NCBI RefSeq assembly: GCF_041886205.1
Contig: NZ_CP169029.1
Source of the DNA: Escherichia coli
Lineage (GTDB): Bacteria; Pseudomonadota; Gammaproteobacteria; Enterobacterales; Enterobacteriaceae
Strand: one strand, 5' to 3'
Length of the DNA: 64,000 nt
Shown here: positions 30,415-50,069 of the stretch, piece by piece
How the letters are laid out: each line of letters opens with the position of its first letter
Numbering within the stretch: position 1 is the stretch's first letter
The notes under the pieces: model-generated
Told to the model about the DNA's origin: nothing
Databases searched by the model: none
Seen by the model: the letters and a program-made list of their open reading frames with translations, nothing else
Made by a program: the position numbers and the translations under genes

Positions 30415-30445
30415 TATTATGTCTCTCTGTGTAGGGTTGTTGTGT

Positions 30446-31432: not shown

Positions 31433-31626
31433 AACGGCTCCCGGTGTTGATGAATGCGGTGAACTAACGACACTACAAATAAAACATTTATTTCATTTTT
31501 ATAAATAGTGAAAATTATATTTTGAGTGACAGTTAACACTTTTGAGATGTATTAGATAAATTTTGTTATCAATCTCACAACGCCGAGGAAGATATGTCCC
31601 TCCATTACAAGGGGGGGAGGGAATAA

Positions 31627-31656
31627 AAACTGTACCATCCCCTCTCCCGTTGGGAG
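31627..31656 (-). terminator. Perfect 14-bp-stem palindrome, probable terminator after iolD
   Basis: CCATCCCCTCTCCC-GTT-GGGAGAGGGGATGG; T-rich run follows on the minus strand. Confidence 0.5.
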
Positions 31657-31716
31657 AGGGGATGGGTGAGAGGAAAAAAGAAAAATGAAATGAAAATTTC
31701 GTTACGACAGGAAAAC

Positions 31717-33642
31717 TCAATACTGACGAGCTTTTTTCACCTGAGCCTGTGTTTGCTCGGCGGCCTGGCGCACTGCTGGCGACTCTGCCACCTGTGCGTT
31801 GCCGGTTCGCCACCATGACGCGTAATCATGGGTCATGGTTTTTGGTAGCACTTTGATGTCGAGGAGCGTCGGTCCCGGGTGAGCGCGCGAGGCTTCCAGC
31901 GCCGCCAGCAGGCTTTTCTCATTATGTACCCGCCATGCGCGGCAACCGTAGCTTTCCGCGTTTTGCGCAAAATCGACCTTCACCAACGGCCCGTCAAGCT
32001 GACCTGTTTTCGGATTACGGTAACGATTTTCTGTGCCAAAACTCCCCATTCCGTGCCCCATCTGCAGGTTATTAATGCAGCCAAAGCTGGCGTTATCAAA
32101 CAGCAGAATGGTGACCTTAATTCCCTCCTGTACGGCAGTTTGCAGCTCTGAGTGCAGCATCATGTACGAACCATCGCCTACCATGGCATACACCGGCTGC
32201 TGAGGTTTTGCCAGCTTCGCACCAATAGCCGCTGCGACCTCATACCCCATGCAGGAGTAACCATACTCCAGATGGTAACTGTCAGGCGTTTTAACCTGCC
32301 AGAGGCGTTGCAAATCCCCTGGCAGCGATCCGGCCGCCCCCACCACAATGGCGTTATCCTCAATATGCTGGTTAATGAGCCCCAACACCCGCGTCTGGGT
32401 CAGGTGTGTGTTGAGCGTTTCACCGTATTCCATTAGCTGTGCATCAAGGTGCCCTGCCACTTCGGGAACGTCGTCAGGATGCCACTGGCGTTCCCACAGT
32501 CGACAGCATTCATCGTGCCAAGCGGATTTCGCATGGGCAATCGCCTCCCCCCAGCCACTACGATAATCTTTCAGTGCGTGGGTCAACGCTGTCAGACCAG
32601 TTCGGGCATCGGCAATGAGCGCGGTGGCATCCAGCTTCAAGGAGTCAAACTCAGCCACGTTCAGCAGCAGGAACTCGACGTCGGGATGAGAAAAGAGCGC
32701 CTTAGAGCCGGTAGTAAAATCCGTCAGGCGCGTGCCGATGCCAATCACTAAGTCAGCCTGCGGCGCAAGCTGGTTGGCAGCCATTCCGCCCGTCACGCCC
32801 ACCCCGCCCAGATTAAGCGGGTGGTCACTTACCAGCGCCCCCTTACCGGCCTGGGTTTCGGCAAACGGCAATTGCAGCACTTCAACAAATTCCCGTAACG
32901 CCTCATGCGCACCGGAGTAACGCACGCCACCGCCGCACACCACCAGTGGACGGCGCTTGCGGGAAATCAATGCATGAGCCTGCGCCAGTCGCTGCGGGTC
33001 AGGCGGACGGCGTTCAATATGATGCACCCGACGCGCAAAGAAACTCAGGGGGTAATCCCAGGCCTCCCCCTGCACATCCTGAGGTAGGCAAATGGTCACC
33101 GCCCCTGTATTTGCGGGGTCAGTAAGCGTTCGCATCGCACTTAACATCGCGCTCATAAGCTGTTCAGGACGGTTGATGCGGTCCCAGTAGCGGGAAACCG
33201 GGCGGAAGCAATCGTTGGTACTGATGCTGAGATCGTGATACTGCTCGATCTGCTGCAACACGGGGTCAGGCTGGCGGCAGGCGTAGATATCCCCTGGCAG
33301 TAGCAGCAGTGGAATGCGGTTCGCCGTGGCCGTCGCTGCCGCCGTCACCATATTGGCAGCGCCAGGCCCAACGGATGAGGTGACAGCAAAAATACGCTGA
33401 CGGCGATGCTGTTTGGCGAATCCCGTCGCCATATGGGCAATCCCCTGCTCGTTACAGCCTTGCATCACCTGCAGATGACCAGGATCCTGCTCCAGCGCCT
33501 GGCCGATACCGAGCACGTTACCGTGCCCAAAGATCGTTGCCACGCCCTCCACAAAGGGCGTTTCTTTACCATCAACGCTAACATATTGTTGGTTAAGAAA
33601 TCTGACCAGAGCCTGGGCCATAGTCATACGTTCGGTTTGCAT
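31717..33642 (-). CDS. iolD: 3D-(3,5/4)-trihydroxycyclohexane-1,2-dione hydrolase IolD (TPP-dependent)
   Basis: 641 aa; thiamine-diphosphate enzyme motifs (GDGSYMM). Confidence 0.85.
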
Positions 33643-33653
33643 AAAACCCCCTG

Positions 33654-35159
33654 TCAGCCCAGAGTCGGCATGGAGAACGCTGCACCTGTCTCCTGCTGCA
33701 TTTCCGGCCAGCGTGCAGTGATGGTTTTCATTCGGGTGTAGAAACGCACGCCATCGTTCCCGTGAACATTGAGCGCGCCAAAAATGGAACGTTTCCAGCC
33801 ACCGAAACAGTGGAATGCCATTGGCACCGGGATCGGCACGTTGACCCCCACCATACCCGCCTGCACCTCTTCACAAAAGCGGCGTGCGCAGCCACCGTCA
33901 CGGGTGAAAATGGCCGAGCCATTACCATATTCGTGTCGGTTAATCAGATCCACCGCGCTGGCGTAATCTGCTACGCGCACCACAGAAAGCACCGGTCCGA
34001 AAATTTCTTCTTTATAGATGGTCATCTCCGGGGTGACGTTATCGAACAGAGTCGGCCCAACGAAATAGCCCTGCTCGTGCCCTTTCACGCTGAGGCCACG
34101 CCCGTCCACACGCAGGTTAGCCCCCTGAGCTTCGCCACTGTCGATATAGCCCAACACTTTGCTGCGGTGTGCGGCGGAGATCAGCGGCCCCATCTCGTTT
34201 TCTGGCGTCTGGTTCAGGCCAGGTCCGACGCGCAGCGAAGCGATCTTTTTTTCCAGCCGGGCGCAGAGTTCATCAGCCGTTTTATCGCCAACCGCCACCA
34301 CCACGGAAAGCGCCATGCAGCGTTCTCCTGCCGCACCATAAGCTGCGCCCATTATGGCGTTTGTCGCCATATCCATATCGGCATCCGGCATTAAAATGCA
34401 GTGGTTTTTCGCACCGCCGAGCGCCTGACAGCGCTTACCGTGGGCGGACGCAGTCAGGTACATGTATTCGGCAATCGGTGTTGAACCGACAAAACTGACG
34501 GCCTGCACGCGCGGGTCGGTCAGGAGCACATCAACGGATTCTTTATCGCCCTGCACCACGTTGAATACGCCGTCCGGCAGGCCTGCCTCTTTCAGCAGTT
34601 TCGCCAGCGCGAGCGCCAGAGACGGATCTTTTTCCGACGGTTTCAGCACGAAGGTGTTGCCTGTCGCCAGAGCTATCGGGAACATCCACATTGGCACCAT
34701 CGCCGGGAAGTTAAACGGCGTGATCCCGGCGCAGACCCCGAGCGGCTGCATCAGTGAGTGGCTGTCGACACCTGTGCCAACGTTCGCAGAGTGTTCGCCT
34801 TTTTGCAGATGTGGGATGCCGCAGGCGAATTCTACCACTTCCAGACCACGGGTCAGTTCACCTACTGCATCTGAGAAGACCTTACCGTGTTCTTCACTGA
34901 TAATACGGGCCAGACGCACCATATTCTCTTCAAGCAACGCTTTGAAGCGGAACATCACACGCGCGCGCTTGAGTGGAGCAAAACGTGCCCACGCGGGAAA
35001 CGCCAACTGTGCTGCGGCAATCGCCTGTTCGGTTTCCTGTGCCGTACTCATCACCACCTGGCGAATCTGCTCGCCAGTGGCCGGGTTGAAGATAGCCTGA
35101 ATGCGCTGGCCTGAACCGGTGACACATTCGCCGTGAATAAAATTCGCTACCGTCTCCAT
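33654..35159 (-). CDS. iolA: Methylmalonate-semialdehyde dehydrogenase IolA/MmsA
   Basis: 501 aa aldehyde dehydrogenase with catalytic Cys context and FTGST-like motif. Confidence 0.85.
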
Positions 35160-35449
35160 CCTTAACCTCTCGCTGTTGATACGTGACTGTTACCTGAACG
35201 TTATGTACTGAACACTATATATGAAACAAATATTCCATTTTAAGTTGAAATAAAATAAATAATGATTATTGTGATCAAGGATGGATTTTTATGTGAACAG
35301 CCAGCATCACTGACTCAGCCTGAGCTATTAGGAGTTTCGGGCGAGGAAATGACTGAAGCTTCTGTTTCATTTTTGCTGCCAGGTGGATGGCCAACATTTA
35401 AAAGACGCGGTTTTGCGTTTAGAATCATGAGACTGGATAGGGGGATAAC

Positions 35450-36310
35450 ATGACGACAGCAACCAGCCTGAACGAACTACAAAAGCAAATCCGCGATCGC
35501 TACGATAGCCTGAGCAAAAGGCTGCAGCAGGTCTCCCGCTATGTACTGGATAATACGAACAGTGTCGCGTTTGATACGGTTGCGGTCATAGCCGAACGTG
35601 CCGATGTTCCACCCTCTACACTGATTCGTTTTGCCAATGCCTTTGACTTCACCGGCTTCAACGAAATGAAACAGTTATTTCGTATGCACCTGGTGGAGGA
35701 AACCGCCAGCTACAGCGATCGTGCGCGACTGTTCCGCGAAATGGAGAGCGAAGCCGTACCTGAAACGCCGCTCGATATTTTGCAGGAGTTCGCCAGTTCG
35801 AACTCGCAGGCGCTGCAGCAGTTGGCTGCCCGCGCCGAACCGGAGATGCTGGAGCACGCCGTACAACTACTGGCCTACGCCGACACCATTTACATCGCCG
35901 GATTACGCAGATCCTTTAGCATTGCTGCTTATCTTACCTATGCTTTAAGCCACCTAGAGTGCCGCCCTATTCTGCTTGACGGGATGGGCGGCATGCTGCG
36001 CGAACAGATCAGCCGTATTAAGGCGTGCGACATTGTGGTGTCGATCAGTTTCTCGCCGTACGCGGAAGAAACGGTGATGGTCAGCAAAACCGCCGCCAGC
36101 GTCGGCGCTCGGCAGATTGTGATTACGGATAGCCAGATCAGCCCACTGGCAACGTTCAGTGATCTCTGCTTTGTGGTGAAAGAGGCTCAGGTGGACGCAT
36201 TTCGGTCTCAGTCGGCAACATTGTGTCTGGTGCAGTCGTTAGTGGTCGCGCTAGCTTACCGTTTAGGAGATAAAAAACATAATAATACCCAGGAAAACAG
36301 TAACCAATAA
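35450..36310 (+). CDS. iolR: RpiR/MurR-family transcriptional regulator IolR (HTH + SIS domain)
   Basis: 286 aa; divergent from iolA. Confidence 0.75.
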   Translation: MTTATSLNELQKQIRDRYDSLSKRLQQVSRYVLDNTNSVAFDTVAVIAERADVPPSTLIRFANAFDFTGFNEMKQLFRMHLVEETASYSDRARLFREMESEAVPETPLDILQEFASSNSQALQQLAARAEPEMLEHAVQLLAYADTIYIAGLRRSFSIAAYLTYALSHLECRPILLDGMGGMLREQISRIKACDIVVSISFSPYAEETVMVSKTAASVGARQIVITDSQISPLATFSDLCFVVKEAQVDAFRSQSATLCLVQSLVVALAYRLGDKKHNNTQENSNQ

Positions 36311-36898: not shown

Positions 36899-37328
36899 TA
36901 CACTACCTCAGGTAGATGATGAGATCAGATACAGGGATCAACTGACGGTGAGCGCAGGCCCGCGAGTGCCCTGATTTAGCGCTGGTTTTGCTTTCCCATC
37001 GAAGGGCCCATACATCATCACGCCCGCGAAACAGTCGACAAAATAACGCAACTTTCTCATCCGTGGATAATACGGAAACGCACTGCACAGGACTCTGCGG
37101 TTTACGTCACCATTCAATCCCATAAGCTTCAAGTTATGTTTGCCCTCAGTGCAGCTAATTCATCACTGTCAGATTTATGAACCATAGTCGTTACCTGTAT
37201 CCGATCCACTGAGGCACCACGGCAGAAATTCGGGTCCCCTACACTGATGACAAAGCCGCCCTCTTCTGCCTATTAACTCAAGCACCTCCCAACAACTTAC
37301 AGAAACTTAATCCTAATACAACTGTAAT

Positions 37329-37892
37329 TCAGTTGTGTCGTGGTCGGCCGCGGTTGCTTTTTTCGGGAAGCCTGCTACGGCCCAGAATAATACCGTGTTC
37401 TTTCTGATCCTGTTTAGCCAGATAGCTAAGGGCGTAACGTAAGTTGTCTACCGCGGACTTATCACTATAGTGCATCACGTGATCGATACGCACCGGGTAT
37501 TTGTCTTTAGCCCGGCAAAGGTGAAAGTAACCCTCCCCTTCCGTGATCTGCCTCCAGATATCTCCCAGTTGCCTGGATATCTGATAAGAGTTCTTGTGAC
37601 GTTGCCCATCCAGGTAGCCGACAAAATGAATATGAAGCCCTTTGTTTTGTGTATATTCCATTACCCAGTAATATCCCGCCAACATCGATTGGGTTTCGCT
37701 AAGTAAGCGGTATATTTCCATACACATACTGTGCTTACAGCCATGACCAAAACTGGGCGTGTCTTTCCTGTAGGCAAAATCAATTCTGAAAGGTAACAGT
37801 TTAGAAAAACGTTGAAACAGACCTTCCATGTGTTCATTCACGTCTTTCAGAATCATGAAGTCCATTTCGTAATTGGGATTAGCATTATACAT
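37329..37892 (-). CDS. YagK/YfjJ-family (inovirus Gp2-like) protein
   Basis: 187 aa; motif GLHIHFVGYLDG; typical partner of AlpA/YfjI in CP4-57-like elements. Confidence 0.65.
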   Translation of the reverse strand: MYNANPNYEMDFMILKDVNEHMEGLFQRFSKLLPFRIDFAYRKDTPSFGHGCKHSMCMEIYRLLSETQSMLAGYYWVMEYTQNKGLHIHFVGYLDGQRHKNSYQISRQLGDIWRQITEGEGYFHLCRAKDKYPVRIDHVMHYSDKSAVDNLRYALSYLAKQDQKEHGIILGRSRLPEKSNRGRPRHN

Positions 37893-38858
37893 TTTATAGT
37901 CCTTACTTTATAAAACTGACAGGAAAGTGGAATTACATAAATACTGAGAGTACAGAAACGCCGTACCGCGGCATTAATAAACGAGGTAACCAGCAGCACA
38001 GACAACCTGATAAAACTGTTTCGTATTACCTCATTACAGTAATAGGGTAATGATTCAGAATACAGTAAGACTCTCTTAAACTGAGGACCAGAACGAATTA
38101 CAATAAAAAACACACCTCATATAATTGAGTTTAAGAAAGCACCATTCAATTACTTACAGGAAATAATCTGATCTTCACAAAAGTCAGCATTGAATAGCCA
38201 CAGGCAACATCGCTATTAGTATTGCCGTACCATTAAGTAAAAACAGAGACTCTGCAGAGAGAGCCTACAGATATTTAATCTCACAATAAGAAGATTATTT
38301 CATACAGAAAAGATTATATTTACCCATAAACTGTAACGGAGCTATAACGTACGAACTAAAGACAATATACTCTAATAGTGTTCTGGTACGTAACTAGTAT
38401 TAAATACAAACCAGACATACATTCAGTGGATTAACTTTCTCAATATTACGCTATAAGTGTAGTAACATAATTTACACATAACTAAACTCCATACACCACC
38501 ACACTGTAGTGTATGGAGATATATGTATTACGCACATACAGAATACTTAGCATAAAGAGGAGTGATATTACGATAGAAAGAGATAAGACAACATAACAGA
38601 TAACATAACTCCCATTAATAATACTAATTAACCTAAATTATTTATTGAACACGAAAACAATGAAGGCCCCACCTCACCTCAGACTAAAGCCGACAATATC
38701 CTGAGCAACACTCTATCCAATAGTAAATAGTGGTTACACCAGTTATATTTACTGACTGACCTGTACCAGAGTTTTCTAATACAACGCTGACATGGTAAAG
38801 ACATTAGTCTCCTCCGCAAGTAGCAGAGGAGACTATATGTACTCAACGATTAAGTCGT

Positions 38859-39176
38859 TCAGAGGTCAAAGTTAGGTGCGACACACAACGTTTTTCCCTC
38901 AATAACCGGTACAACTCTGTTTTGTTCATACAGTAAATCCAGTAACCAGTTGATTTTATCCTTTTTCCGGAAACGGTTCGGACCACGCTGTAAAATGTCA
39001 TTTTTTTTCATACAGAGGATCCCCTTCTCAATACAATAGCTTTTTATCCAGTTGAAAAGTTCAAGCTCCTCTGGAATGAGTCGCACAGGTACGGTCAGGG
39101 CAGAGTTGTCAAAAGTTAACGGATTAGACAACCGCACATACTCATTACCGTACCATATTGCTAATTCTCTCGCCAT
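38859..39176 (-). pseudogene. DUF3987 (YfjI-like) gene, C-terminal fragment, disrupted by IS186
   Basis: Frame continues from the IS186 junction. Confidence 0.5.
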
Positions 39177-39202
39177 TTCTGCAGTGTAAGGGGAAATATC
39201 CC

Positions 39203-40541
39203 CATAAGCGCTAACTTAAGGGTTGTGGTATTACGCCTGATATGATTTAACGTGCCGATGAATTACTCTCACGATAACTGGTCAGCAATTCTGGCCCATA
39301 TTGGTAAGCCCGAAGAACTGGATACTTCGGCACGTAATGCCGGGGCTCTAACCCGCCGCCGCGAAATTCGTGATGCTGCAACTCTGCTACGTCTGGGGCT
39401 GGCTTACGGCCCCGGGGGGATGTCATTACGTGAAGTCACTGCATGGGCTCAGCTCCATGACGTTGCAACATTATCTGACGTGGCTCTCCTGAAGCGGCTG
39501 CGGAATGCCGCCGACTGGTTTGGCATACTTGCCGCACAAACACTTGCTGTACGCGCCGCAGTTACGGGTTGTACAAGCGGAAAGAGATTGCGTCTTGTCG
39601 ATGGAACAGCAATCAGTGCGCCCGGGGGCGGCAGCGCTGAATGGCGACTACATATGGGATATGATCCTCATACCTGTCAGTTCACTGATTTTGAGCTAAC
39701 CGACAGCAGAGACGCTGAACGGCTGGACCGATTTGCGCAAACGGCAGACGAGATACGCATTGCTGACCGGGGATTCGGTTCGCGTCCCGAATGTATCCGC
39801 TCACTTGCTTTTGGAGAAGCTGATTATATCGTCCGGGTTCACTGGCGAGGATTGCGCTGGTTAACTGCAGAAGGAATGCGCTTTGACATGATGGGTTTTC
39901 TGCGCGGGCTGGATTGCGGTAAGAACGGTGAAACCACTGTAATGATAGGCAATTCAGGTAATAAAAAAGCCGGAGCTCCCTTTCCGGCACGTCTCATTGC
40001 CGTATCACTTCCTCCCGAAAAAGCATTAATCAGTAAAACCCGACTGCTCAGCGAGAATCGTCGAAAAGGACGAGTAGTTCAGGCGGAAACGCTGGAAGCA
40101 GCGGGCCATGTGCTATTGCTAACATCATTACCGGAAGATGAATATTCAGCAGAGCAAGTGGCTGATTGTTACCGTCTGCGATGGCAAATTGAACTGGCTT
40201 TTAAGCGGCTCAAAAGTTTGCTGCACCTGGATGCTTTGCGTGCAAAGGAACCTGAACTCGCGAAAGCGTGGATATTTGCTAATCTACTCGCCGCATTTTT
40301 AATTGACGACATAATCCAGCCATCGCTGGATTTCCCCCCCAGAAGTGCCGGATCCGAAAAGAAGAACTAACTCGTTGTGGAGAATAACAAAAATGGTCAT
40401 CTGGAGCTTACAGGTGGCCATTCGTGGGACAGTATCCCTGACAGCCTACAAAACGCAATTGAAGAACGCGAGGCATCGTCTTAACGAGGCACCGAGGCGT
40501 CGCATTCTTCAGATGGTTCAACCCTTAAGTTAGCGCTTATG
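39203..40541 (+). mobile_element. IS186 (IS4 family) with 11-bp target duplication GGAAATATCCC
   Basis: 23-bp inverted repeats CATAAGCGCTAACTTAAGGGTTG at 39203-39225 and 40519-40541; direct repeats at 39192-39202 and 40542-40552. Confidence 0.85.
39252..40370 (+). CDS. insL: IS186 transposase (InsL)
   Basis: 372 aa; translation MNYSHDNWSAILAHIGKPEELDTSARNAGALTRRREIRDAATLLRLGLAYG... matches my recollection of IS186 InsL. Confidence 0.85.
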   Translation: MPMNYSHDNWSAILAHIGKPEELDTSARNAGALTRRREIRDAATLLRLGLAYGPGGMSLREVTAWAQLHDVATLSDVALLKRLRNAADWFGILAAQTLAVRAAVTGCTSGKRLRLVDGTAISAPGGGSAEWRLHMGYDPHTCQFTDFELTDSRDAERLDRFAQTADEIRIADRGFGSRPECIRSLAFGEADYIVRVHWRGLRWLTAEGMRFDMMGFLRGLDCGKNGETTVMIGNSGNKKAGAPFPARLIAVSLPPEKALISKTRLLSENRRKGRVVQAETLEAAGHVLLLTSLPEDEYSAEQVADCYRLRWQIELAFKRLKSLLHLDALRAKEPELAKAWIFANLLAAFLIDDIIQPSLDFPPRSAGSEKKN

Positions 40542-41660
40542 GGAAATATCCCCCTCTTCACCGCTCGAATGGTAAATAAGTCCTGCCAGTCTTGCCATAT
40601 ACTCTGCATTTTTAGCAGCATATTCCCGGCAATGTCTTAAAGGCCCCAATCCCCCCAGCTTCGATTCCACATCATTGTAATAATCCGTCCAGATTCTGGC
40701 AGCCTGAGGAGAAAAGTGAAGGCAACGTCGTTCACCACTCATCGCCAGACTTTCATCAATAAGCTCATTGATCCTCTCTTCAAACAAATCCTGATACTGT
40801 GATGAATAATTATCTCCGGTTATTATCCTTGTCCCCTGCGTTGATGTTGGTTGACACATCAAAAACCTTGCATGATGTCCTGACGTTTTCACAATTTCTT
40901 TTTTTCGCGTACAAAAACCTTTGTGGTAAACATCAGGCTGAATCATCACCGATATCGTCAGTCTTGGCTCCTTCAAATTAATTCCGGGAGATGATTTCCT
41001 GTCGATGAAAAGAGAACCTCCATCCCACAAAGTGTTAATAATTCCCAGTTTACTCATGGCCCGGCTGTCAAAAATTACCCCCCCTTCACTGGATACAAGA
41101 GCAAAAGAGCGATTGCTGTCGGAATAATATTTTAACATTCCCTCTATCGTTGTCTCATTAAAAATTGTTCGACGTATCTGCGGCGGAACAGGAGGTTTAT
41201 TCAGATGCGTTTCAAGCTCTGATTCTGTTGCCTTGTAATCTTTACCGGCACGAATCTCTTTATGAAATTTTGATTCCAGCGCTTTTTGTTTTTGCTCCCA
41301 TATTTCCTTTTCTGTACTGTAATTCTCAACCAGTTTCGCGTATTCTTCCGCCAGGGCTTCATCCCTGAGATAAAATGCTTTCATAAACACTTTATCCACG
41401 GTCGTTTTCCTTTCACCGGAATCAGCCAGAATCAGAGAGTAAAGATTAACAGGCCCATGTAAATTTCCAGGTCTGCACACGTCAATCTGATTCTGACAGG
41501 CAATTGAGATCGCTGTTAATGCGGATGTTGCCACCATAGCCAAAGGTGCCTGTGTATTTTTTTGAGTTTCAATTATTGCATTTCTCACCAGCGGTGGTAG
41601 TGCATATATCGGATAAGGATTTTCTGGTGCAAGTAAGCACATAAAAGCCTCTCTTTTCAT
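40530..41660 (-). pseudogene. DUF3987 (YfjI-like) gene, N-terminal 376 codons, disrupted by IS186
   Basis: Resembles CP4-57 YfjI; frame ends inside the IS186 terminal repeat. Confidence 0.55.
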
Positions 41661-41860
41661 TAATGGGTTAGTAAAATAGCAGCAAATCCCGCTACAATAG
41701 CGAAAATAGCTGCTATTCAGACCTGATGCTCTGAGAAATACAGAGCATTTGTAGATCTGATGTTTAATAAACCGATAAGGTTAATTCAGTGAAGACTGTA
41801 TTATTCACCACGAAATATCATTCATATTTCTCATTCTTAATACCTCCAGAAATTATTTCA

Positions 41861-42200
41861 CTAATACCTTTCCCCCGGTCTTTTCCCTTTCTCCAGAACC
41901 ATAGTGTAAATATTAACGGCCCCACGTAAATTTCCGGGACTGCATACGTCAACCTGATTCTGACAGGCAATTGACATCGCTGTTAATACTGACATTGCAA
42001 CCAGAGTCAGAGGTACTTGTTTATTGTATTGAGCTTTAATTATTGCCTTCCCTATCATTGATGGTCATGCATATACTGAATACGGCATATCCGGTTTGAT
42101 GTAAGACATAAATGCTTCCTTTTTCGTAATACGTTTCGGTTATAGCAGCAATTACCGCTACAATAGCGACAATAGCTGCTCTTTCAACAATGAATGCTGG
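41861..42200 (-). repeat. Degenerate tandem duplicate of the yfjI-like 5' end and upstream region
   Basis: 41900-42190 aligns with 41440-41700; the 65-aa ORF 41861..42058 repeats the N-terminal motif (...SIACQNQVDVCSPGNL...). Confidence 0.55.
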
Positions 42201-42284
42201 AAATTCTGTTTATCAATTAAACTTCTGGATAAATTGTTCTTATGCTTCTTTTTCCTCCTGAGGTGATCACGTGATGACAAAAAC

Positions 42285-42593
42285 TTATCTGCTCATGGTC
42301 ATATCTGAAGAAAGCGTATGTCGCACTTCGTCATTAACACCTTTGACTGCTGATCTGGCAGGTACAGTATGTAAAGTAAGCCATTCGTCAATAGCTGATG
42401 AACGCCAGCCCACAGAACCACTACCAAGACGTACCGGCCTGGGGAAGGTTGCATCGTAGTATTTCGATAACGGATTCATTTTTTCGTAAATTGTCGAACG
42501 AGATATACCTAACAATTGGCTCAGTTCAGGCATCCGTAAGATGCGTGAAGGAGTCCAGCAGTATCCGGATTGATCTGGCATTTTATCCCCCAT
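42285..42593 (-). CDS. alpA: AlpA-family phage regulatory protein
   Basis: Motif RILRMPELSQLLGISRSTIYEKMN...YDATFPRPVRLGSGSVGWRSSAIDEWL. Confidence 0.7.
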   Translation of the reverse strand: MGDKMPDQSGYCWTPSRILRMPELSQLLGISRSTIYEKMNPLSKYYDATFPRPVRLGSGSVGWRSSAIDEWLTLHTVPARSAVKGVNDEVRHTLSSDMTMSR

Positions 42594-42786
42594 AGTGTGG
42601 TGAACTGTCGTTACAGTTTGTATTCCCCGGGTAAATTTGTCTGCGTAAAAAAATGGGCTGAGCAAAAAGACAATAAATAATTAAAAATCAATACGATAGA
42701 AAACAACAGCATTATTGTTATTTTACTTTCACCTTATCGCTGTCGATTCTCATTATCATTCATTGGTAAAAAACAGCAAAAGAGGC

Positions 42787-43553
42787 CCTGGTAATGACTC
42801 CAGTCAGTAGTACAGTGTTTTCGACAAATGAACCAATGGCTTTTCGTGAATTTCCAGGGAGCGTGAAAAGCAAATCGTTTTCCGGGCTGGTCGTTTGATG
42901 TGAGTACGAAGTGTCAGATTGTTGCACTCAATGCGCCGGGTAAATATCTTGCCGACAAGATGCTTATCCTGTGGCATTTCTCTGGTATAACTGCTCCGGT
43001 TGTCTCTGGTTATCATGCCTGTGGAGAATGGCTTCAGGAGTTCCGGCAACTCACGACATGTTTCATCAGTGCGAGGACCAAAAGTGTAAGCCAGCACACC
43101 TCCAGATTTGGTGTTATACGCATACCAGTGCCACTGCTGACGAGCTTTGTTTTCGACAAAACTCCATTGTTCATCAAGTTCGCAGATAAGCGTCACATCG
43201 GCACTGGCGACTGGAGATGTGGTTACTTTGCGTGGTGAGCGTTTTATAAAGTGAGAATGACGGTGTTGATATCCACCTTCAGCGTTCTGGAACTATCGCG
43301 AACCCCGACTCCGTTATGAACCATTTCAACAATTTGCTCTTTAATGCCTGGTTTTCGGGTTTCGTAGATGTAATTCAGTTGAAATACACACGTTTGCAGG
43401 ATTAGCACTGGAAACGCTCATGATCTGAGGTGCTGTGATCATAATGGTACACTTTATAGGAATTACAGCTGGGAGAATGTACTGTAACTGTTGCCATATG
43501 GTCTCCAGATACCAATAGAATACCACATTAATCTATCGTCAGAAGGCATCACC
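42787..43553 (-). mobile_element. Divergent IS1-family element
   Basis: 767 bp; IS1-like termini (GGTAATGACTCCAG... and ...GAAGGCATCACC); InsA-like C-terminus (MVHNGVGVRDSSRTLKVDINTVIL) and InsB-like ORF. Confidence 0.6.
42804..43196 (-). CDS. IS1-family InsB-like protein
   Basis: 130 aa; resembles IS1 InsB (DEQW...RQ.W..YAY...TQRIE.NL.LR.H..R). Confidence 0.6.
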   Translation of the reverse strand: MTLICELDEQWSFVENKARQQWHWYAYNTKSGGVLAYTFGPRTDETCRELPELLKPFSTGMITRDNRSSYTREMPQDKHLVGKIFTRRIECNNLTLRTHIKRPARKTICFSRSLEIHEKPLVHLSKTLYY

Positions 43554-43693
43554 GGGGCCTTCTGACATAATCTGTTAATACGTGTACTATTACCCTGTTC
43601 AGAAAATATTGATTCAAAAATGAAAACCAGTTAACAGAAAAGCAAAATGATATAATGTTAAAATTTTATATAGTGCAATAAAAGGAGAATGTT

Positions 43694-45511
43694 ATGTATA
43701 ATTTTATCACTATAATGTATGATGTCTTTTCATGTTTTGGTGTTCTGGCTAAAAACCAGAATACCCGTGACATCCGAAATATTAAAAATTTTTCCTCACA
43801 TCAATATTCACTGGGCGACATGTTTGATGAATTAATAAACATTATTGATAAAGAACAAGTATTGAGTACAGAACAACGAAAAGTTATATTTAGGAGATAT
43901 GAAGATCTCTATGTTAAGCTAATGCACTATTCTGTTTTTACAGACCAAACACATCAAATAATAAAACAAAAATATTTTAATGACATTGTACCAATGATTC
44001 TCGCACTCGACATCAGGAACACATATCGCCCGGATAATGAGATGGCATTTTACTATCATATTCATTCTTTTCTCACTCAGATACCGGATAATGAGGATGA
44101 TATATATCATGCTGCAAGGACATATCTGCGAAATTACGTTAAGTTATGTTTATCCGGATACACACCAGCGAATGCGCATTTCAAAGATATCTTTGATGGC
44201 GTATATGAATTCATTCGTAATATTCGCAAAAACAGTACACCAGGAAAAACAAAACTTATCGCAACTATCAACACATGCAAAGAAACCTGTAAACATCTGC
44301 TTTATTTAAGTAATGAAGACAAGGAAAAAATAATTTCTGACTTAGATAAAGTTCAGGTTGCATGTTATTATCTCACTATATTACTGGCTTTCGAAAGACG
44401 AACTTCATTAACAAGCACCCTGGCAACTTTATATAAAATGCTGATAAGCGAAAGAGAAGTTTCAGAATATGAATGCCAGTTATTATATTTAACCAACCCA
44501 ATAGATGTAATGAATATACTGAACAAATACATATATTACTTTCCTAATGAAAACTCACCATTTTATACACTGAAAATTGACAGTGCATTATCGTGGGATG
44601 CCATTGACGCAATACGAGACTATAGTATTTCTGATATTTATCTTTATCCTGAACAAAAAACAATAAATTGTGTCGTTGAGATTGAAAACATTGTCTTTGG
44701 CGGTTACATTTATACATTGAACAACGGCGTCACATTACAAAACATAGAAAACACTTTAAAAGATTCTTCATGCCATTATGTCTTAAATGGCTATACAGAA
44801 TTTGTTAACTGTTTGATACAACTTACTTCAGGAAAGACTGAAAGTGTTCATCGCACCATCAATAAACTGAACTATGAGAAATTACCTTTTGGATTTATCA
44901 TTGCCGCGTTTGCTATACTAAAGATAGCATTTAAAATAAAATTCAGTAAAAATCATGTAAATATCCGAGCATTATTAAATGACATCAATTATTTTATGAC
45001 TTATCAGGGCGAGTCCATTAACCTTATTTCACTGGATCACGAATACCCAGAGTCCTGTCTTCAAAATGACACAAACACATATTTATTAGGAAGAGTAATA
45101 TTTCTGTATAACTCAATGATTTATAAGTTCATAAACTGTCAGGAACATGAAACCAATAACATTCACTCAGCTATGATAAATAACCTATTACAGGAAGTTG
45201 ATATAGCCCTTGGTAAAATAAATAACATTATAGACAGCAGAAACATATCAGCCCCCCATGAACTGGCAAATATTCTTACCCGCGAAAAAATACTTACAAC
45301 ACGGGAAAAAAAAGGAAACCTGATAAGCCTGTTTGATGGATTCACTTTATTCCATTGTGTTGGAATGATAACCTTTCTTATCCATTATCTCAGAACACCT
45401 GAAGAAAAAGTTGAAAATATATTTATGTTATATGGTGCAGATAAAAACAATAAACTACGCAGAAGACTGATTTATGACGCACTAGGAATAATTCAGTCTC
45501 AGCAGGAGTGA
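43694..45511 (+). CDS. Hypothetical protein, 605 aa, AT-rich orphan in the int-alpA variable slot
   Basis: Long uninterrupted ORF; very low GC versus flanks; no motif I can recognise. Confidence 0.5.
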   Translation: MYNFITIMYDVFSCFGVLAKNQNTRDIRNIKNFSSHQYSLGDMFDELINIIDKEQVLSTEQRKVIFRRYEDLYVKLMHYSVFTDQTHQIIKQKYFNDIVPMILALDIRNTYRPDNEMAFYYHIHSFLTQIPDNEDDIYHAARTYLRNYVKLCLSGYTPANAHFKDIFDGVYEFIRNIRKNSTPGKTKLIATINTCKETCKHLLYLSNEDKEKIISDLDKVQVACYYLTILLAFERRTSLTSTLATLYKMLISEREVSEYECQLLYLTNPIDVMNILNKYIYYFPNENSPFYTLKIDSALSWDAIDAIRDYSISDIYLYPEQKTINCVVEIENIVFGGYIYTLNNGVTLQNIENTLKDSSCHYVLNGYTEFVNCLIQLTSGKTESVHRTINKLNYEKLPFGFIIAAFAILKIAFKIKFSKNHVNIRALLNDINYFMTYQGESINLISLDHEYPESCLQNDTNTYLLGRVIFLYNSMIYKFINCQEHETNNIHSAMINNLLQEVDIALGKINNIIDSRNISAPHELANILTREKILTTREKKGNLISLFDGFTLFHCVGMITFLIHYLRTPEEKVENIFMLYGADKNNKLRRRLIYDALGIIQSQQE

Positions 45512-45698
45512 AACGTTAAAACAGGCAAATTGTTTTTTATAAATAGGAGATTGTTGAGTAATCCCCTGTTTATAAAAATACGCTTTCCTGACGATCTGAT
45601 AATTATCAGCTCAATACATTTGACATAAAAGCGGTTCCTTAATTACTACTGCCACGATCACATATCAAATCATGATCGTACAATATACATTTTCACTA

Positions 45699-46901
45699 TT
45701 ATTTATTCACAATTTGAGACATCACATAATCCGCCCATGCCTGCATCATCGGTACACGCTGCTCCAGTAGATCAGTACGATGATATGCCGCCTCAACCTT
45801 ATTTTTCAGCGTATGAGCGAGCGCCCTTTCCGCCAGATCCCGCGAATACCCCTGTTCACTACACCAGTCCCTGAATGTTGAGCGAAAACCATGTGCCGTG
45901 GCAACTCGCCCCGGAATGTCACTGACGGCTTTCTTTTTACGCAGAAAACTTGTCAACACCATATCGGAAAGGATCTGCTGCTTTCTGGGTGAAGGGAACA
46001 CCAGTTCATCATGCAGGCCACGTATATTTTCCAGAATGTAAATAGCCTGCCGGGATAAAGGAACACGATGCTGTAGCCTGGCTTTCATTCTTTCTGCAGG
46101 TATAGTCCATACCCGCTTATGAAAATCAATTTCAGCCCAGCGCATTCCCCTGGCTTCGCCCGAGCGAGTTGCTGTAAGTATCACCATTAATAACAGTGCG
46201 CGGGTAACATTATAAGGTTCATCACTATACACACTGGTCGCCACAAAAAGCGGTAACTGCCTCCAGGGCATTGCTGGTTGGTGTTCATCACGTCCTCTTG
46301 TCTGCTGAGGAAGCAAATGGTCAACCACATCAACAGGATTTGCCACACAAAAACCGTGCGCCCATCCCCACTGCATAACAACATGAATGCGCTGTTTAAC
46401 CCGGCTTGCCGTTTCTGACAAGGTTAACCAGACTGGACGCAGTGTTTCTGCCACGTCCGCAGCCGTAATCGAATCCAGCGTTTTTGCTCCCAGTTGAGGA
46501 AACGCGTAATTCTCAAGCGTCGATAACCACTGCCTTACATGCTTTGGATTTTCCCATCCTGGAGACAATTCTGCATGTACACGCCTGGCTGCATCGGCAA
46601 ATGTTGGGATAACGACTTTCTCAGATTCAGCCTTTTTAATCTCCAGAGGATCATCACCTGCAGCAAGTTGCTCTCGCATTATCCGGGCAGTACGTGCAGC
46701 TTCAGCAATACTGACCTCTGGGTAAGTTCCCAATCCAGCATTACGTCTTTTTTGTGTCACCGGACTTACATAACGAAAAACCCATTTCCCCCGCCCCTTT
46801 ACTGAAGAAGGATGAAGGGTCAGTCCGGTAATTCCCCCATGGGGCAATGGTTTGTCATCAGGTTTGATATGTCTTGCTTTCGTATCCGTCAATACTGCCA
46901 T
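45699..46901 (-). CDS. int: Tyrosine integrase, P4/CP4-57 type
   Basis: 400 aa; N-terminal MAVLTDTKARHIKPDDKPLPHGG... and C-terminal catalytic region (HGFRSTFRDW...LAH...Y). Confidence 0.85.
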   Translation of the reverse strand: MAVLTDTKARHIKPDDKPLPHGGITGLTLHPSSVKGRGKWVFRYVSPVTQKRRNAGLGTYPEVSIAEAARTARIMREQLAAGDDPLEIKKAESEKVVIPTFADAARRVHAELSPGWENPKHVRQWLSTLENYAFPQLGAKTLDSITAADVAETLRPVWLTLSETASRVKQRIHVVMQWGWAHGFCVANPVDVVDHLLPQQTRGRDEHQPAMPWRQLPLFVATSVYSDEPYNVTRALLLMVILTATRSGEARGMRWAEIDFHKRVWTIPAERMKARLQHRVPLSRQAIYILENIRGLHDELVFPSPRKQQILSDMVLTSFLRKKKAVSDIPGRVATAHGFRSTFRDWCSEQGYSRDLAERALAHTLKNKVEAAYHRTDLLEQRVPMMQAWADYVMSQIVNK

Positions 46902-47061
46902 ACGCTAATTCCCGTCACTCTGGTATGCCATCCAGTATGCCATTAGTCTCTCGCTTCACTAAGAATACATTAGATAATATCGGACAACAAAAAGTGTAAT
47001 ACATTGTTTATAATGAAATTATATAACACCCCTGGATTAAGTCAGATTTATTTCAGGCGGT

Positions 47062-47522
47062 CCCCCTCACCGCCATATTTAAAGAAGAGCTCGTACGAAA
47101 GTACGGGCTTTTTTTTCGTATATTGCACACACCGGGGGGATGAGAATCCCCGACCGGGGGTCGACAACTGGCGGCAGCCAGTTGGACAGACCGTGAACGC
47201 AGTGAGCGGGCTGCCCGCAGGGCGAGCGAAGCGAGTCAATCCCCCCCTCACCGCCATATTTAAAGAAGAGCTCGTACGAAAGTACGGGCTTTTTTTTTCG
47301 TATATTGCACACACCGGGGGGATGAGAATCCCCGACCGGGGGTCGACAACTGGCGACAGCCAGTTGGACAGACCGTGAACGCAGTGAGCGGGCTGCCCGC
47401 AGGGCGAGCGAAGCGAGTCAATCCCCCCCTCACCGCCATATTTAAAGAAGAGCTCGTACGAAAGTACGGGCTTTTTTTCGTGTATTGCACACACCGGGGG
47501 GATGAGAATCCCCGACCGGGAT
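47062..47522 (+). repeat. Tandem ~180-bp repeats (about 2.6 copies), each beginning with a tRNA-Ser(GGA)-like 3'-end copy (attachment core)
   Basis: Unit starts at about 47062, 47243 and 47424; copies 2 and 3 carry AATCCCCCCCTCACCGCCA; each unit also contains a hairpin plus T-run (GCTCGTACGAAAGTACGGGCTTTTTTT) and further stem-loops. Confidence 0.7.
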
Positions 47523-47528
47523 ACTTAG

Positions 47529-48215
47529 TTAATGCAACGGTTCACTCTTTGTCGCCGCGACTAATGGGCGAATTTTGTCACGAGTCTCCCAGACCGGAGG
47601 GATTTCCTCCAATTTAGTGACAGAAGCTCGTACAAAAGGCACTCGTGCAAGAGTCATAATCGTATCCAACCAACGGTCACGAATAATGCGATCCGCCCTT
47701 TCATGACTCGGGTCATCCAGCTCAATAACACAGACTATTTTATTGTTCTTCTTTGAAACCAGAACATAATCCATTGCCATGCCATTATAAATTGCAAAGA
47801 AACGCTTTCTTTCTTCTTCGCTAAACTCAGGTTGTTCTGGATAGTTGAGCAAGCGCCCCAGAGAGACCTGGCAATGGATATGACAATAATGTCCAAACCA
47901 TTTCTCCAGATTATCGAAATACATTTTTTCACAACGCGTGATTAACCACTCTTTTCCTTCCAATAAAATACCTTCGGCAACCATTCCCTGAAATAACTCA
48001 TCTCGTTCTTGCCAACGAGAGTCACGATAGGTTTTCTGCGGTATATAGGTCCTTGTCGACGACTTAGCAGCAGGGGAAGTTGCAGATGAAGGGACTGGTT
48101 GCGATTTAGCGATGATTACCGATGAGGCAACTTTTCGGAGTGTCAATTTTCTGGCAACAGCAAAACCGGCGACAAATGCAATTGTCAAACAAGTTACAAA
48201 AGCCATAAAGCTCAT
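47529..48215 (-). CDS. DUF2726-like membrane-anchored protein (restriction-endonuclease-like fold)
   Basis: 228 aa; N-terminal TM helix; C-terminal motif KIVCVIELDDPSHERADRIIRDRWLD. Confidence 0.45.
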   Translation of the reverse strand: MSFMAFVTCLTIAFVAGFAVARKLTLRKVASSVIIAKSQPVPSSATSPAAKSSTRTYIPQKTYRDSRWQERDELFQGMVAEGILLEGKEWLITRCEKMYFDNLEKWFGHYCHIHCQVSLGRLLNYPEQPEFSEEERKRFFAIYNGMAMDYVLVSKKNNKIVCVIELDDPSHERADRIIRDRWLDTIMTLARVPFVRASVTKLEEIPPVWETRDKIRPLVAATKSEPLH

Positions 48216-48766
48216 AATTAATTTTCACTTATCCATGTTGATTATATTTCATTACCAATGTTACTCGCTGAAGCGTGTTACATGCCAACAATGCAACGAT
48301 CAATATATAGTTAGTATCATGTTTTGATTATTACAACCATCCCTATTTTGCCATTGCAGCTTGCCTTCCACAAAAAAAATAACAACAAACAATATTAGCC
48401 AAAGAATTAATTAAGATTAACCTTGCATTTATAATATTATCCCTAAAGAATAAATCAGAGGAATATATTCGGTGTTAATCAGTCAGTCAAATTATGGCCC
48501 ATTGTTGATTAAACCTCATAAGCAAAATTGGCACCAGATCTCCTGTACAGGTTGAATGGCCGAAAAAAGATAGGCAGATGCTCGCTTTTTTGGCTTCTGG
48601 AAGAAAAACTCTCCGCACTGGCAGTATTACACTGGTCTGATGCTATGACGAAAAATGCCTGGTAAGAGTATCTAAACCAGACTCCAGTTCAGCTTATCAA
48701 CACGCTCAAAGTCGCCCCCCTGAACGCTAACCTGAAGTTAAAGTCTTTGCTGTTAATGAAATAAAA

Positions 48767-48790
48767 CAAAGCCCGGTTCGCCCGGGCTCT
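48767..48790 (-). terminator. Rho-independent terminator of phoH
   Basis: Minus-strand GCCCGGGCGAACCGGGC hairpin followed by TTTGTTTT. Confidence 0.55.
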
Positions 48791-48805
48791 GCACCGATAA
48801 CACAC

Positions 48806-49729
48806 TTAACTGTATGCATGCAGCGTACGTTGGCAAAGTGCCGAACGTACGCAATCCTCTTTACCGAACCGGACGATCCCAACCATTTCATCTTCTTCGA
48901 AACGTTCCAGCGCGTCACTTAATCCGGAGCACACGCCGCGAGGCAAATCGCATTGCGTGATATCACCGTTGACGATAACTGTCACGTTCTCCCCGAGGCG
49001 GGTTAAAAACATTTTCATTTGCGCGGCAGTCACATTCTGCGCCTCGTCAAGAATGACGACTGCATTTTCAAAGGTACGTCCACGCATATAGGCGAAAGGC
49101 GCAATTTCCACCTTCCCTATTTCCGGTCGCAGGCAGTACTGCATAAAGGAAGCCCCTAAGCGCCGGACCAGCACGTCGTAAACCGGGCGAAAATAGGGAG
49201 CAAACTTTTCTGCGATATCTCCAGGTAAGAAGCCAAGATCTTCATCGGCTTGCAGAACTGGACGGGTGACGATAATCCTGTCGACATCCTTATGTATCAG
49301 GGCCTCTGCCGCTTTTGCTGCGCTGATCCAGGTTTTTCCGCACCCGGCTTCGCCCGTGGCGAATATCAGCTGCTTACTCTCAATAGCCTTCAGATAGTGC
49401 AATTGCGCTTCATTACGCGCGAGGATGGGCGAAGTATCGCGACTGTCGCGGGCCATACCAATGGCTTCTACGCCGCTCATTTGCACAAGCGAGGTGACCG
49501 ATTCTTCTTCACGCTGCTTATGGCTGCGCGAATCCCGTCTCAGCACACGTTTTGCCTCGCGACGAGCTTTGATCACTGCTTTTTGTCTTCCCATGGAGAG
49601 CACCTTGAGTTGTTTGTATTCATCACACGCGCCGTTGGCAGCGCGATTATGCGCACGAACATCAGAGGGTTGGCTTCCTTGTAAGCCATAGTTTGCTTTT
49701 GGATAAAATGCCGAAAAACGGCTACGCAC
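48806..49729 (-). CDS. phoH: PhoH (phosphate-starvation-inducible ATPase); start codon uncertain
   Basis: PhoH/YbeZ motifs (GEAGCGKT, VILDEAQN); synteny with efeB. Confidence 0.85.
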   Translation of the reverse strand: MRSRFSAFYPKANYGLQGSQPSDVRAHNRAANGACDEYKQLKVLSMGRQKAVIKARREAKRVLRRDSRSHKQREEESVTSLVQMSGVEAIGMARDSRDTSPILARNEAQLHYLKAIESKQLIFATGEAGCGKTWISAAKAAEALIHKDVDRIIVTRPVLQADEDLGFLPGDIAEKFAPYFRPVYDVLVRRLGASFMQYCLRPEIGKVEIAPFAYMRGRTFENAVVILDEAQNVTAAQMKMFLTRLGENVTVIVNGDITQCDLPRGVCSGLSDALERFEEDEMVGIVRFGKEDCVRSALCQRTLHAYS

Positions 49730-50069
49730 ACCGTTTGCGGCGTCGGTAACACGAGTAAAGAGAGGAAGTGAGAAAAATACAGAGTGACGAAGTTGCTACC
49801 GGAGGAGAAAACTCCGCGAGTGGTGGCGCGTTGATTATCTAAAACATGTCCAGTATAGGACGTTACCATCCGCGATCTCCATAGTGACTGACTATCACTG
49901 CCGGGAACTTCCGCTGCTACTTAATAAGTACAACAGATCTCGCATTTATTGCAACAATATATTTACTTATATTTAACTATAAAACACCATTTTAGTGACA
50001 TTAGTTTCTACTGGAAAGATGACAGAGTGATGACAGTGATGAAAAAAGCTGTGTGCTTTCAGCAGGATT

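Follow-up and report, generated by a model that had tools for sequence, protein, structure and literature searches.

The window, by which we mean the whole 64-kb stretch of Escherichia coli DNA analysed here, carries an island whose yfjI gene is split by a complete copy of the insertion sequence IS186 (Table 1). This element, the only IS186 copy in the window, was found to be 100% identical over 1339 bp to the IS186B/IS421 copies of many E. coli genomes. With the known forms (IS186A/B, IS421) it shares the 23-bp inverted repeats, here perfectly complementary over all 23 positions, and a DDE_Tnp_1 transposase. The coordinates assigned to the transposase gene agree with those of the annotated WP_001300563.1 gene at the relative locus L001, while the mechanically called open reading frame begins at GTG 39252. 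Judged from its intact ends, its intact transposase gene and its identity to other copies, this IS186 copy would be expected to be competent for transposition.

Table 1 Features of the yfjI::IS186 locus and its island neighbourhood in the window.
Feature	Position	Strand	Remarks
AEP primase gene stub	36912–37133	−	tblastn: residues 24–116 only, 67% identity
yfjJ-like 'inovirus-type Gp2' gene, intact	37329–37892	−	downstream neighbour of yfjI in the alpA-yfjI-yfjJ module
Terminator-like hairpin	38805–38835	−	13-pair stem shortly past the yfjI stop codon; consensus scan, inverted repeat
3' part of yfjI	38859–39202	−	codons 374–483 and stop, plus left duplication copy; last lid helix and C-terminal winged helix
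Left target-site duplication copy GGAAATATCCC	39192–39202		inside the window's only GGGG(N6)CCCC motif (39190–39203)
Complete IS186B/IS421 element (IS4 family)	39203–40541	+	1339 bp between 23-bp inverted repeats
Left terminal inverted repeat CATAAGCGCTAACTTAAGGGTTG	39203–39225	+	perfect reverse complement of 40519–40541
IS186 transposase gene, intact	39258–40370	+	370 aa; PF01609 DDE_Tnp_1, E 1.6e-26; translation checked
Right terminal inverted repeat CAACCCTTAAGTTAGCGCTTATG	40519–40541	+	perfect reverse complement of 39203–39225
5' part of yfjI	40530–41660	−	codons 1–373 plus His-Lys-Arg-stop from the IS end; 376-aa ORF
Right target-site duplication copy GGAAATATCCC	40542–40552		direct repeat
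alpA-type helix-turn-helix regulator gene, intact	42285–42581	−	PF05930 Phage_AlpA, E 9e-19; upstream of yfjI
Tyrosine integrase gene of the island, intact	45699–46901	−	400 aa; Arm-DNA-bind_3, Phage_int_M and Phage_integrase domains

Restoration of the interrupted gene

The same 11-bp sequence borders the element on both sides, far beyond what chance would place next to a perfect IS (about 4^-11 for fixed positions). The exact direct repeat measures 13 nt (39191–39203 and 40541–40553), since the outermost C and G of the element prolong the G and C runs of the target. The boundary between IS186 and duplication can thus be shifted by ±1 nt on either side. This permits duplications of 11–13 bp and elements of 1337–1339 bp, and any choice of boundary gives the identical restored sequence. 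An 11-bp GGGGTGCCCCC repeat has been reported for IS186B (PMC12102499).

Excision in silico of positions 39203–40552 fuses 38859–39202 with 40553–41660 into a single open frame of 1452 nt on the minus strand, which encodes 483 aa and for which the RefSeq-style start is the ATG at 41642. The restored protein matches PF13148 (DUF3987) at residues 37–396, covering profile positions 1–363 of 364 (E 5e-84; 282.9 bits at a cut-off of 27), and differs only by T151M from its intact counterpart in strain C11. The pre-insertion site, GGGGAAATATCCCCC, is seen uninterrupted in C11, and the intact alleles of C11 and ZYB39 hold exactly one copy of the 11-bp sequence at the insertion position, as the insertion model requires. 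An earlier note on this DNA had described the locus as an IS186 insertion with intact 23-bp inverted repeats and an 11-bp target duplication in a DUF3987 (YfjI-like) gene, and had predicted that removal of the same segment would recover a continuous frame of about 480 aa; these claims were confirmed throughout.

The insertion site lies in codons 369–374. Residues 1–373 of the 5' ORF are those of the restored protein, and the truncated product retains the P-loop SGERKT (residues 81–86), E192, K350 and R357. Since the protein ends after Ser373 with 110 C-terminal residues detached, yfjI::IS186 is very probably a null or severely impaired allele. A consensus scan found no outward promoter at the IS end facing the yfjI 3' fragment, and promoter-like counts overall were at the level of shuffled sequence.

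YfjI as a helicase-type protein

The same note had called the split gene a putative primase/replication-type gene, a label of which the replication-type part is fair while the primase part had to be given up. Pfam recognizes only DUF3987 in the restored protein, and a primase identity was rejected for want of any Toprim/DnaG or AEP/Prim-Pol catalytic domain in that search. Primase domains are confined to longer relatives at 31–35% identity, in which Toprim, PriCT or Prim-Pol domains are fused on, and to a distinct gene nearby. DUF3987 defines a family of MCM-related AAA+ helicases (SF6) that carry a winged helix at the C terminus (PMC4889955). For one member, AgaPH, ATP-dependent DNA unwinding has been demonstrated (PMC11724360), and DUF3987 helicases paired with primases have been proposed as the replication machinery of mobile elements (PMC11724360, PMC4889955).

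Several comparisons point in the same direction. The motif SGERK[ST] (S81–K85), E192 and R448 are invariant across 28 aligned homologues, and all are kept in the window's protein. The AlphaFold model of YfjI (pLDDT 86) places a helix at residues 374–395, a linker at 398–411 and a winged helix of helix-helix-helix-strand-strand topology at 413–479. The best Foldseek matches in the PDB are MCM2-7, archaeal MCM, ComM and RuvB, with a probability of about 1.0 but otherwise weak (E about 4e-4, TM 0.2–0.39), and a PDB sequence search with the restored protein returned no match at E ≤ 1. YfjI also matches PHROG 2373, 'DNA helicase', at E 3e-62. From sequence and model combined, YfjI is a predicted helicase-type AAA+ protein of the MCM-like kind that carries a winged helix at its C terminus.

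With the DUF3987/SF6 helicases used for comparison, namely AgaPH (PriCT-DUF3987) and phage DUF3987 helicases, YfjI has in common the Pfam domain, conservation of the P-loop and of an acidic residue, a predicted AAA+ core whose structural neighbours are MCM-like, the C-terminal winged helix and the association of its gene with an AEP primase gene, which is intact in strain AR_0069. Unlike AgaPH, YfjI is a stand-alone protein without a PriCT or primase domain and its helicase role is a predicted one; its P-loop reads SGERK[ST] instead of the classic GxxxxGK[ST]. In contrast to these systems, yfjI is split in the window, and only a stub of the partner primase gene is left there. A PADLOC scan of YfjI, the Gp2-like protein, a 605-aa hypothetical protein and a DUF2726 protein gave no defence-system match, after which a reading as a defence gene was dropped.

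The island around yfjI

The gene set expected of a mobile island, comprising integrase, AlpA and a replication module, is present in the window, with the module damaged by the split in yfjI and the truncation of the AEP primase gene. Integrase and AlpA are each identical to the C11 protein. The yfjJ-like product differs from its C11 counterpart by 3 residues; relatives annotate it as 'inovirus-type Gp2 protein', and its match to PF23343 (REP_ORF2-G2P) is weak (21.4 bits, under the 27.8-bit cut-off). The AEP primase has an intact length of 786 aa in AR_0069, of which about 93 aa are left in the window, and annotation lists its gene as a pseudogene in two strains with intact yfjI, C11 and ZYB39. 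A dead IS1 and a yfjI 5' fragment belong to the island backbone and are common to relatives without IS186, including C11. Based on the primase stub, the primase pseudogene in relatives with intact yfjI, and the dead IS1 and yfjI fragment in IS186-free relatives, the replication module seems to have been defective already when IS186 inserted.

The window is a mosaic of ZYB39-like and C11-like islands. A mosaic breakpoint at the IS was considered and rejected, as similarity to ZYB39 already falls from about 38,400, before the insertion site. The window contains no tRNA gene, nor do loci L001 and L006, and a search for att repeats between the integrase-side end (46902–48800) and the rest of the window gave two 14-mers, which is chance level; at its far end the island may extend beyond the window. 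The island is CP4-57-like: going by RefSeq product names, its gene order alpA-yfjI-yfjJ is that of the K-12 cryptic prophage CP4-57. The two elements are alike in having a P4-type tyrosine integrase near AlpA-type regulator, YfjI-family and YfjJ/Gp2-type genes. Unlike CP4-57, the island described here lies beside phoH, where the window has no tRNA gene, carries a myo-inositol catabolism cluster as cargo, and has an extra yfjI 5' fragment, the dead IS1 and IS186.

Target choice, recurrence and competing explanations

IS186 has a highly specific target, GGGG(N6/N7)CCCC, of which K-12 has only 19 sites of the N6 type, and repeated independent insertions at single sites have been described in both orientations (Lee et al. 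2016, PMC5009759). The target in yfjI, GGGG-AAATAT-CCCCC, fits this published motif, and GGGGAAATATCCCC(C) is the sole G≥4 N3–6 C≥4 site of the 64-kb window, for which shuffles give 2.4 ± 1.6. Written over the alleles found in E. coli, the site reads GGGGAAAT(A/C/G)TCCCCC.

Among 5426 complete E. coli genomes, 2220 contain IS186 matches by nucleotide comparison, 1373 have an uninterrupted 'YfjI family protein' gene (counted when the match covers at least 80% of the query), and 19 carry IS186 at the yfjI site, in 16 of them oriented as in the window and in 3 the opposite way. For the same-orientation group, the duplication allele was sampled from three of its 16 genomes. The window has GGAAATATCCC; AR_0069 and SCU-104 carry GGAAATCTCCC, and GGAAATGTCCC occurs in FAHZZU7007, C 691-04A and OkiPb01690, with both copies identical within each sampled occupied locus. 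Empty sites exist for all three alleles (A in 6 genomes, C in 871 and G in 263). As both orientations occur and the three alleles are each mirrored in both duplication copies, comparison of these sequences indicates that the yfjI site was struck by IS186 independently at least 4 or 5 times. A SNP mirrored in both copies of a duplication separates independent insertions from inherited ones.

The window's own junction, consisting of the IS end and the A-allele duplication, was found in 0 of the 5426 genomes, so that either the window's genome is not in the collection or the insertion is private. The earlier note had regarded the insertion as recent, and this agrees with the perfect inverted repeats and duplication, the identity of the IS to other copies, the open reading frame kept in both gene halves and the single residue that separates the restored protein from an intact allele. 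On these sequence features, the insertion is best regarded as recent and private to its lineage.

Known IS186 hot spots at GGGG(N6/N7)CCCC include the lon promoter, fimA and menC. The yfjI site shares with them the motif with an N6 core, a duplication spanning from the G run to the C run, and repeated independent insertion in either orientation (PMC5009759). Unlike these, it lies inside a gene of a horizontally acquired island and not in a core gene or promoter, and its recurrence comes from natural isolates instead of laboratory lines. A literature search found no paper naming IS186 together with yfjI.

Recurrence at one nucleotide position might also mean that yfjI is costly or harmful to the host and that its knock-outs are selected, recurrent IS186 insertion being favoured rather than reflecting a mere hot spot. 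We consider this unlikely. While Lee et al. themselves ask whether some IS186 target sites are selected, their mutation-accumulation lines show repeated insertions at a single motif without selection (PMC5009759). In about 25 genomes the yfjI match fails to run contiguously along 80% or more of its length, and 19 of them have IS186 at the site; however, selected inactivation would be expected to leave varied lesions, whereas nearly all large disruptions fall at one canonical IS186 motif. Moreover, yfjI is intact in 1373 of 1398 carrier genomes with all family-invariant residues kept, which argues that the gene is maintained and not selected for loss, although the at least 4 or 5 independent hits at one position would fit selection. 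It appears similarly improbable that the GGGG(N6)CCCC of yfjI is a conserved natural hot spot for IS186 at which knock-outs are not neutral but selected as a means of quietening costly or self-replicating CP4-57-like islands.

The proposal of the earlier note that IS186 knocked out a primase/replication gene needed by the island, turning a mobile island immobile, found no support and is in our view very unlikely. A replication-type protein was indeed truncated, with the loss of 110 conserved C-terminal residues, and DUF3987 helicases with partner primases have been proposed to replicate mobile elements, but YfjI has no primase domain of its own and the adjacent AEP primase gene is defective here and in relatives with intact yfjI alike. 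Integrase and AlpA, which would act in excision, are intact. The inactive IS1 and the yfjI fragment likewise sit in the backbone of relatives without IS186, and neither the mosaic make-up of the window from two different islands nor the search for att repeats and tRNA genes in it favours an island immobilized by this event. It is highly improbable that one ancestral insertion spread between islands by homologous recombination with no recurrent targeting, since a SNP arising after insertion would change one duplication copy only and recombination cannot invert an IS between its own duplications, while the three doubled alleles each occur as empty sites and both orientations are found; island recombination is evident from the mosaic, but that five of the six loci compared have identical IS copies is explained by the near invariance of IS186 in E. 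coli, with best matches of at least 99% identity in 2724 of 2814 records.

We therefore regard a recent, target-specific insertion of IS186B into yfjI, with probably little consequence for the island, as the very likely explanation of the locus. IS186B, an IS4-family element with a DDE transposase, would have transposed into the sole GGGG(N6)CCCC site of the 64-kb region, and repair of a staggered cut would have produced the 11-bp duplication. The choice of site would have been set by the target specificity of the transposase and not by the function of yfjI, and in other E. coli lineages IS186 has struck the same nucleotide position independently and in either orientation. The interrupted frame stops after Ser373 and three IS-encoded residues, which cuts off 110 aa comprising the last helix of the lid and the conserved winged helix at the C terminus. 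Because the replication module already looked defective and integrase and AlpA are still intact, the insertion probably changed little for the island, including its mobility.

The yfjI::IS186 event is ordinary and already known in kind, and its significance beyond annotation is small: the ORFs at 38859–39202 and 40530–41660 are best annotated together as a single yfjI pseudogene that IS186 interrupts, and the fitting label for YfjI is helicase-type, not primase. For E. coli, the finding means that the IS186 motif rule derived from laboratory mutation-accumulation lines also predicts landing sites in natural isolates, given that the sole motif in 64 kb was struck independently at least 4 times.

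Restoration of the yfjI frame

Removal of 39203-40552 in silico, with 38859-39202 joined to 40553-41660, restored a 1452-nt open frame on the minus strand (script), encoding 483 aa and thus regaining the continuous ORF of about 480 aa that the earlier note had anticipated for the island gene yfjI. The restored product matched the DUF3987 profile (PF13148) from end to end, scoring 282.9 bits over positions 1-363 of 364, and the uninterrupted gene, annotated 'YfjI family protein', was found in 1373 of 5426 complete E. coli genomes at a query coverage of at least 80%. Strain C11 carries the nearest intact allele, with a single copy of the target site (GTGTAAGGGGAAATATCCCCCTC) and T151M as the sole difference from the restored protein. 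The split gene encodes residues 1-373 followed by His-Lys-Arg and a stop codon from the IS end, the other 110 residues being detached. Hence, the splitting of a DUF3987/YfjI gene proved to be real, correctly located and correctly reconstructed; in other genomes, the same disruption is already annotated in RefSeq as an incomplete 'YfjI family protein' beside an IS421 transposase.

The assignment to IS186 likewise stood in all testable defining features, namely identity, inverted repeats, transposase, target motif and duplication. At 1339 bp, the element matches genomic copies that carry IS186B or IS421 transposase annotations with 100% identity, and it is present in 2220 of the 5426 genomes (median 3 copies). 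As claimed, both inverted repeats (CATAAGCGCTAACTTAAGGGTTG) are intact and form a perfect reverse complement over 23 nt (sequence reading, repeat finding, script), and the 11-bp duplication (GGAAATATCCC) is present in identical copies directly outside the ends. The exact direct repeat measures 13 nt (39191-39203 / 40541-40553): the terminal C and G of the IS merge with the target's own runs of these bases, so that each boundary is ambiguous by one base. This ambiguity is inherent to IS186, whose targets start with a G run and finish with a C run, and leaves the reconstruction of yfjI unaffected.

Features of the insertion and its surroundings
Feature	Coordinates	Strand	Remarks
naRNA4 (REP-type)	50147-50324	-	two tandem copies, downstream of phoH
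Ysr251	48811-49004	+	antisense, within phoH
DUF2726 gene	47529-48215
Integrase	45699-46901	-	gene order
Hypothetical gene, 605 aa	43694-45511	+	between dead IS1 and integrase
Dead IS1	42804-43196 and surroundings	-	DDE_Tnp_IS1 fragment; between alpA and 605-aa gene
alpA	42285-42581	-	gene order
yfjI 5' fragment, 65 aa	41861-42058	-	between alpA and full yfjI; DUF3987 N-terminus match
Inverted repeat, 20 nt	41675-41717		directly upstream of yfjI start codon
Target duplication	39192-39202; 40542-40552		11 bp
IS186 inverted repeats	39203-39225; 40519-40541		23 nt
IS186 transposase ORF	39258-40370	+	intact, 370 aa, DDE_Tnp_1
yfjJ/Gp2-like gene	37329-37892	-	after yfjI::IS186
AEP primase stub	36912-37133	-	after yfjJ/Gp2-like gene
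Myo-inositol catabolism cluster	29485-36310		after AEP primase stub, last in gene order

Repeated insertion at one target site

Before insertion, the yfjI site read GGGG-AAATAT-CCCCC, a canonical target of IS186. A regular-expression search of the 64-kb window for G>=4 N3-6 C>=4 gave a single match, the IS186 site itself (shuffles: 2.4 ± 1.6). Lee et al. (PMC5009759) described the IS186 target GGGG(N6/N7)CCCC as highly specific, with just 19 N6 sites in the K-12 genome, independent hits recurring at single sites (16 in fimA, 11 in menC) and insertion in both orientations, and an 11-bp duplication of IS186B (GGGGTGCCCCC) has been described in PMC12102499.

A 3.1-kb query across the interrupted gene (at least 80% coverage) detected yfjI::IS186 in the window's orientation in 16 genomes, and the same construct with the IS reversed in 3. 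In all five occupied loci retrieved, the IS lies at the identical nucleotide position with an 11-bp duplication, whose base 7 varies among loci while both copies agree within each. Among loci in the window's orientation, the window itself has A at this base, strains AR_0069 and SCU-104 have C, and FAHZZU7007 has G; the two loci with the opposite orientation, C 691-04A and OkiPb01690, both have G and show 67 differences from one another over 1440 flanking positions. Empty sites of all three alleles exist (A in 6 genomes, C in 871, G in 263). As a mutation after insertion would alter one copy of the duplication only, the variation means that IS186 inserted separately into alleles that were already present, at least four times and probably five.

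The recency proposed for the window's insertion was borne out by its perfect ends, the still open gene halves, the single residue separating it from an intact allele and a junction of IS end and A allele found in none of the 5426 genomes, all of which speaks for a recent insertion confined to this lineage. Repeated insertion at a single motif, in either orientation, has already been published for IS186. Our literature search returned no paper connecting the element with yfjI, but yfjI::IS186 is a new instance rather than a new kind.

YfjI as a helicase-type protein

The designation of yfjI as a putative primase gene did not hold, as Pfam returned only DUF3987 and no primase domain for the restored protein, and the gene is helicase-type. 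Kazlauskas et al. 2016 (PMC4889955) assigned DUF3987 to the SF6 helicases, distant relatives of MCM, and noted a winged helix at the C-terminus as well as frequent pairing with primases of the AEP or DnaG type; Kazlauskas et al. 2018 (PMC5862659) predicted a mobile-element helicase. For AgaPH, a PriCT-DUF3987 protein, 5'-3' helicase activity that depends on the Walker A and B motifs has been demonstrated (PMC11724360). Homologues of YfjI (31-35% identity) include fusion proteins of about 800 aa that also contain Toprim, PriCT and Prim-Pol domains, and YfjI matched PHROG 2373 'DNA helicase' with an E-value of 3e-62. Across an alignment of 28 sequences, S81-G-E-R-K85, E192, R265, R278, K350, R357 and R448 are invariant, and all are kept in the window's protein.

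The AlphaFold model (pLDDT 86.1, pTM 0.75) comprises an alpha/beta ATPase core, lid helices, a disordered linker (398-411) and a winged helix (413-479, helix-helix-helix-strand-strand). Top Foldseek matches in the PDB were MCM2-7 subunits, archaeal MCM, ComM and RuvB, with a probability of about 1.0, yet E-values of only about 4e-4 and TM scores of 0.2-0.39. The insertion point coincides exactly with the start of helix 374-395 in the model; the truncated protein therefore lacks the last lid helix and the entire winged helix, including R448, and a loss of function is predicted as likely.

Upstream, the 65-aa fragment matches the DUF3987 N-terminus (E 6e-8), shares 57% identity with YfjI residues 24-84 and is annotated likewise in C11, C 691-04A and ZYB39. 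The fragment resembles a remnant of an old recombination or of a tandem arrangement of two related islands. The inverted repeat preceding yfjI (AATAGCAGCAAATCCCGCTA / TAGCGAAAATAGCTGCTATT, 80% complementary, 3-nt spacer), flagged by a scan as a minus-strand terminator-like hairpin, may act as an operator or as that fragment's terminator.

State of the island

Judged by sequence identity, the island is a mosaic of two parts: 10764-39203 is 99.87% identical to the ZYB39 island at thrW (next to tRNA-Thr/proA), whereas 40541-50189 shares 99.2% identity with the C11 island on the phoH side. The left part holds IS66/IS3 remnants, the iol cluster and the Gp2 gene, and the right part spans yfjI to efeB. 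The match to ZYB39 weakens from about 38,400 onwards, which suggests the conserved yfjJ-yfjI region as a recombination hinge between islands. The iol cluster comprises iolG, iolD, a methylmalonate-semialdehyde dehydrogenase, an RbsB-like sugar-binding protein and an RpiR-type regulator, with iolB, iolE and iolC farther left by ZYB39 homology. The 605-aa ORF, without a match in Pfam, NCBIfam, PHROG or PADLOC, is conserved in C11 and AR_0069 and annotated as hypothetical. Between the integrase end and phoH (47319-48762) lies only the DUF2726 gene, and the AR_0069 island end adjoins ycdU-dgcT-pgaABCD, about 9.8 kb missing in the window and C11. No tRNA gene was seen at the integrase-side end in any locus checked, and neither a tRNA nor an att-like repeat was found within the window. 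Ysr251 and naRNA4 matched Rfam above gathering score.

The suggestion that the insertion immobilised the island was unsupported. The AEP primase gene, intact in AR_0069 (786 aa, 'TOTE conflict system archaeo-eukaryotic primase domain-containing protein'), is recognisable in the window over residues 24-116 only (67% identity) and has a pseudogene annotation in C11 and ZYB39, where yfjI is intact; the dead IS1 and the yfjI 5' fragment also occur in C11. The replication module thus looks broken before IS186 arrived. The window's stub is followed by a transposase fragment and the iol cargo. Dead IS1, annotated in relatives as frameshifted with an internal stop, is common to C11, AR_0069 and C 691-04A and therefore predates the IS186 insertion. 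Integrase and AlpA do not differ from their C11 counterparts, the excision genes are untouched, and, given the terminator-like hairpin directly 3' of the yfjI stop codon, no polar effect on yfjJ is to be expected. Overall, the functional reading of the insertion is corrected in two respects: the interrupted gene is of helicase rather than primase type, and the island was probably little affected.
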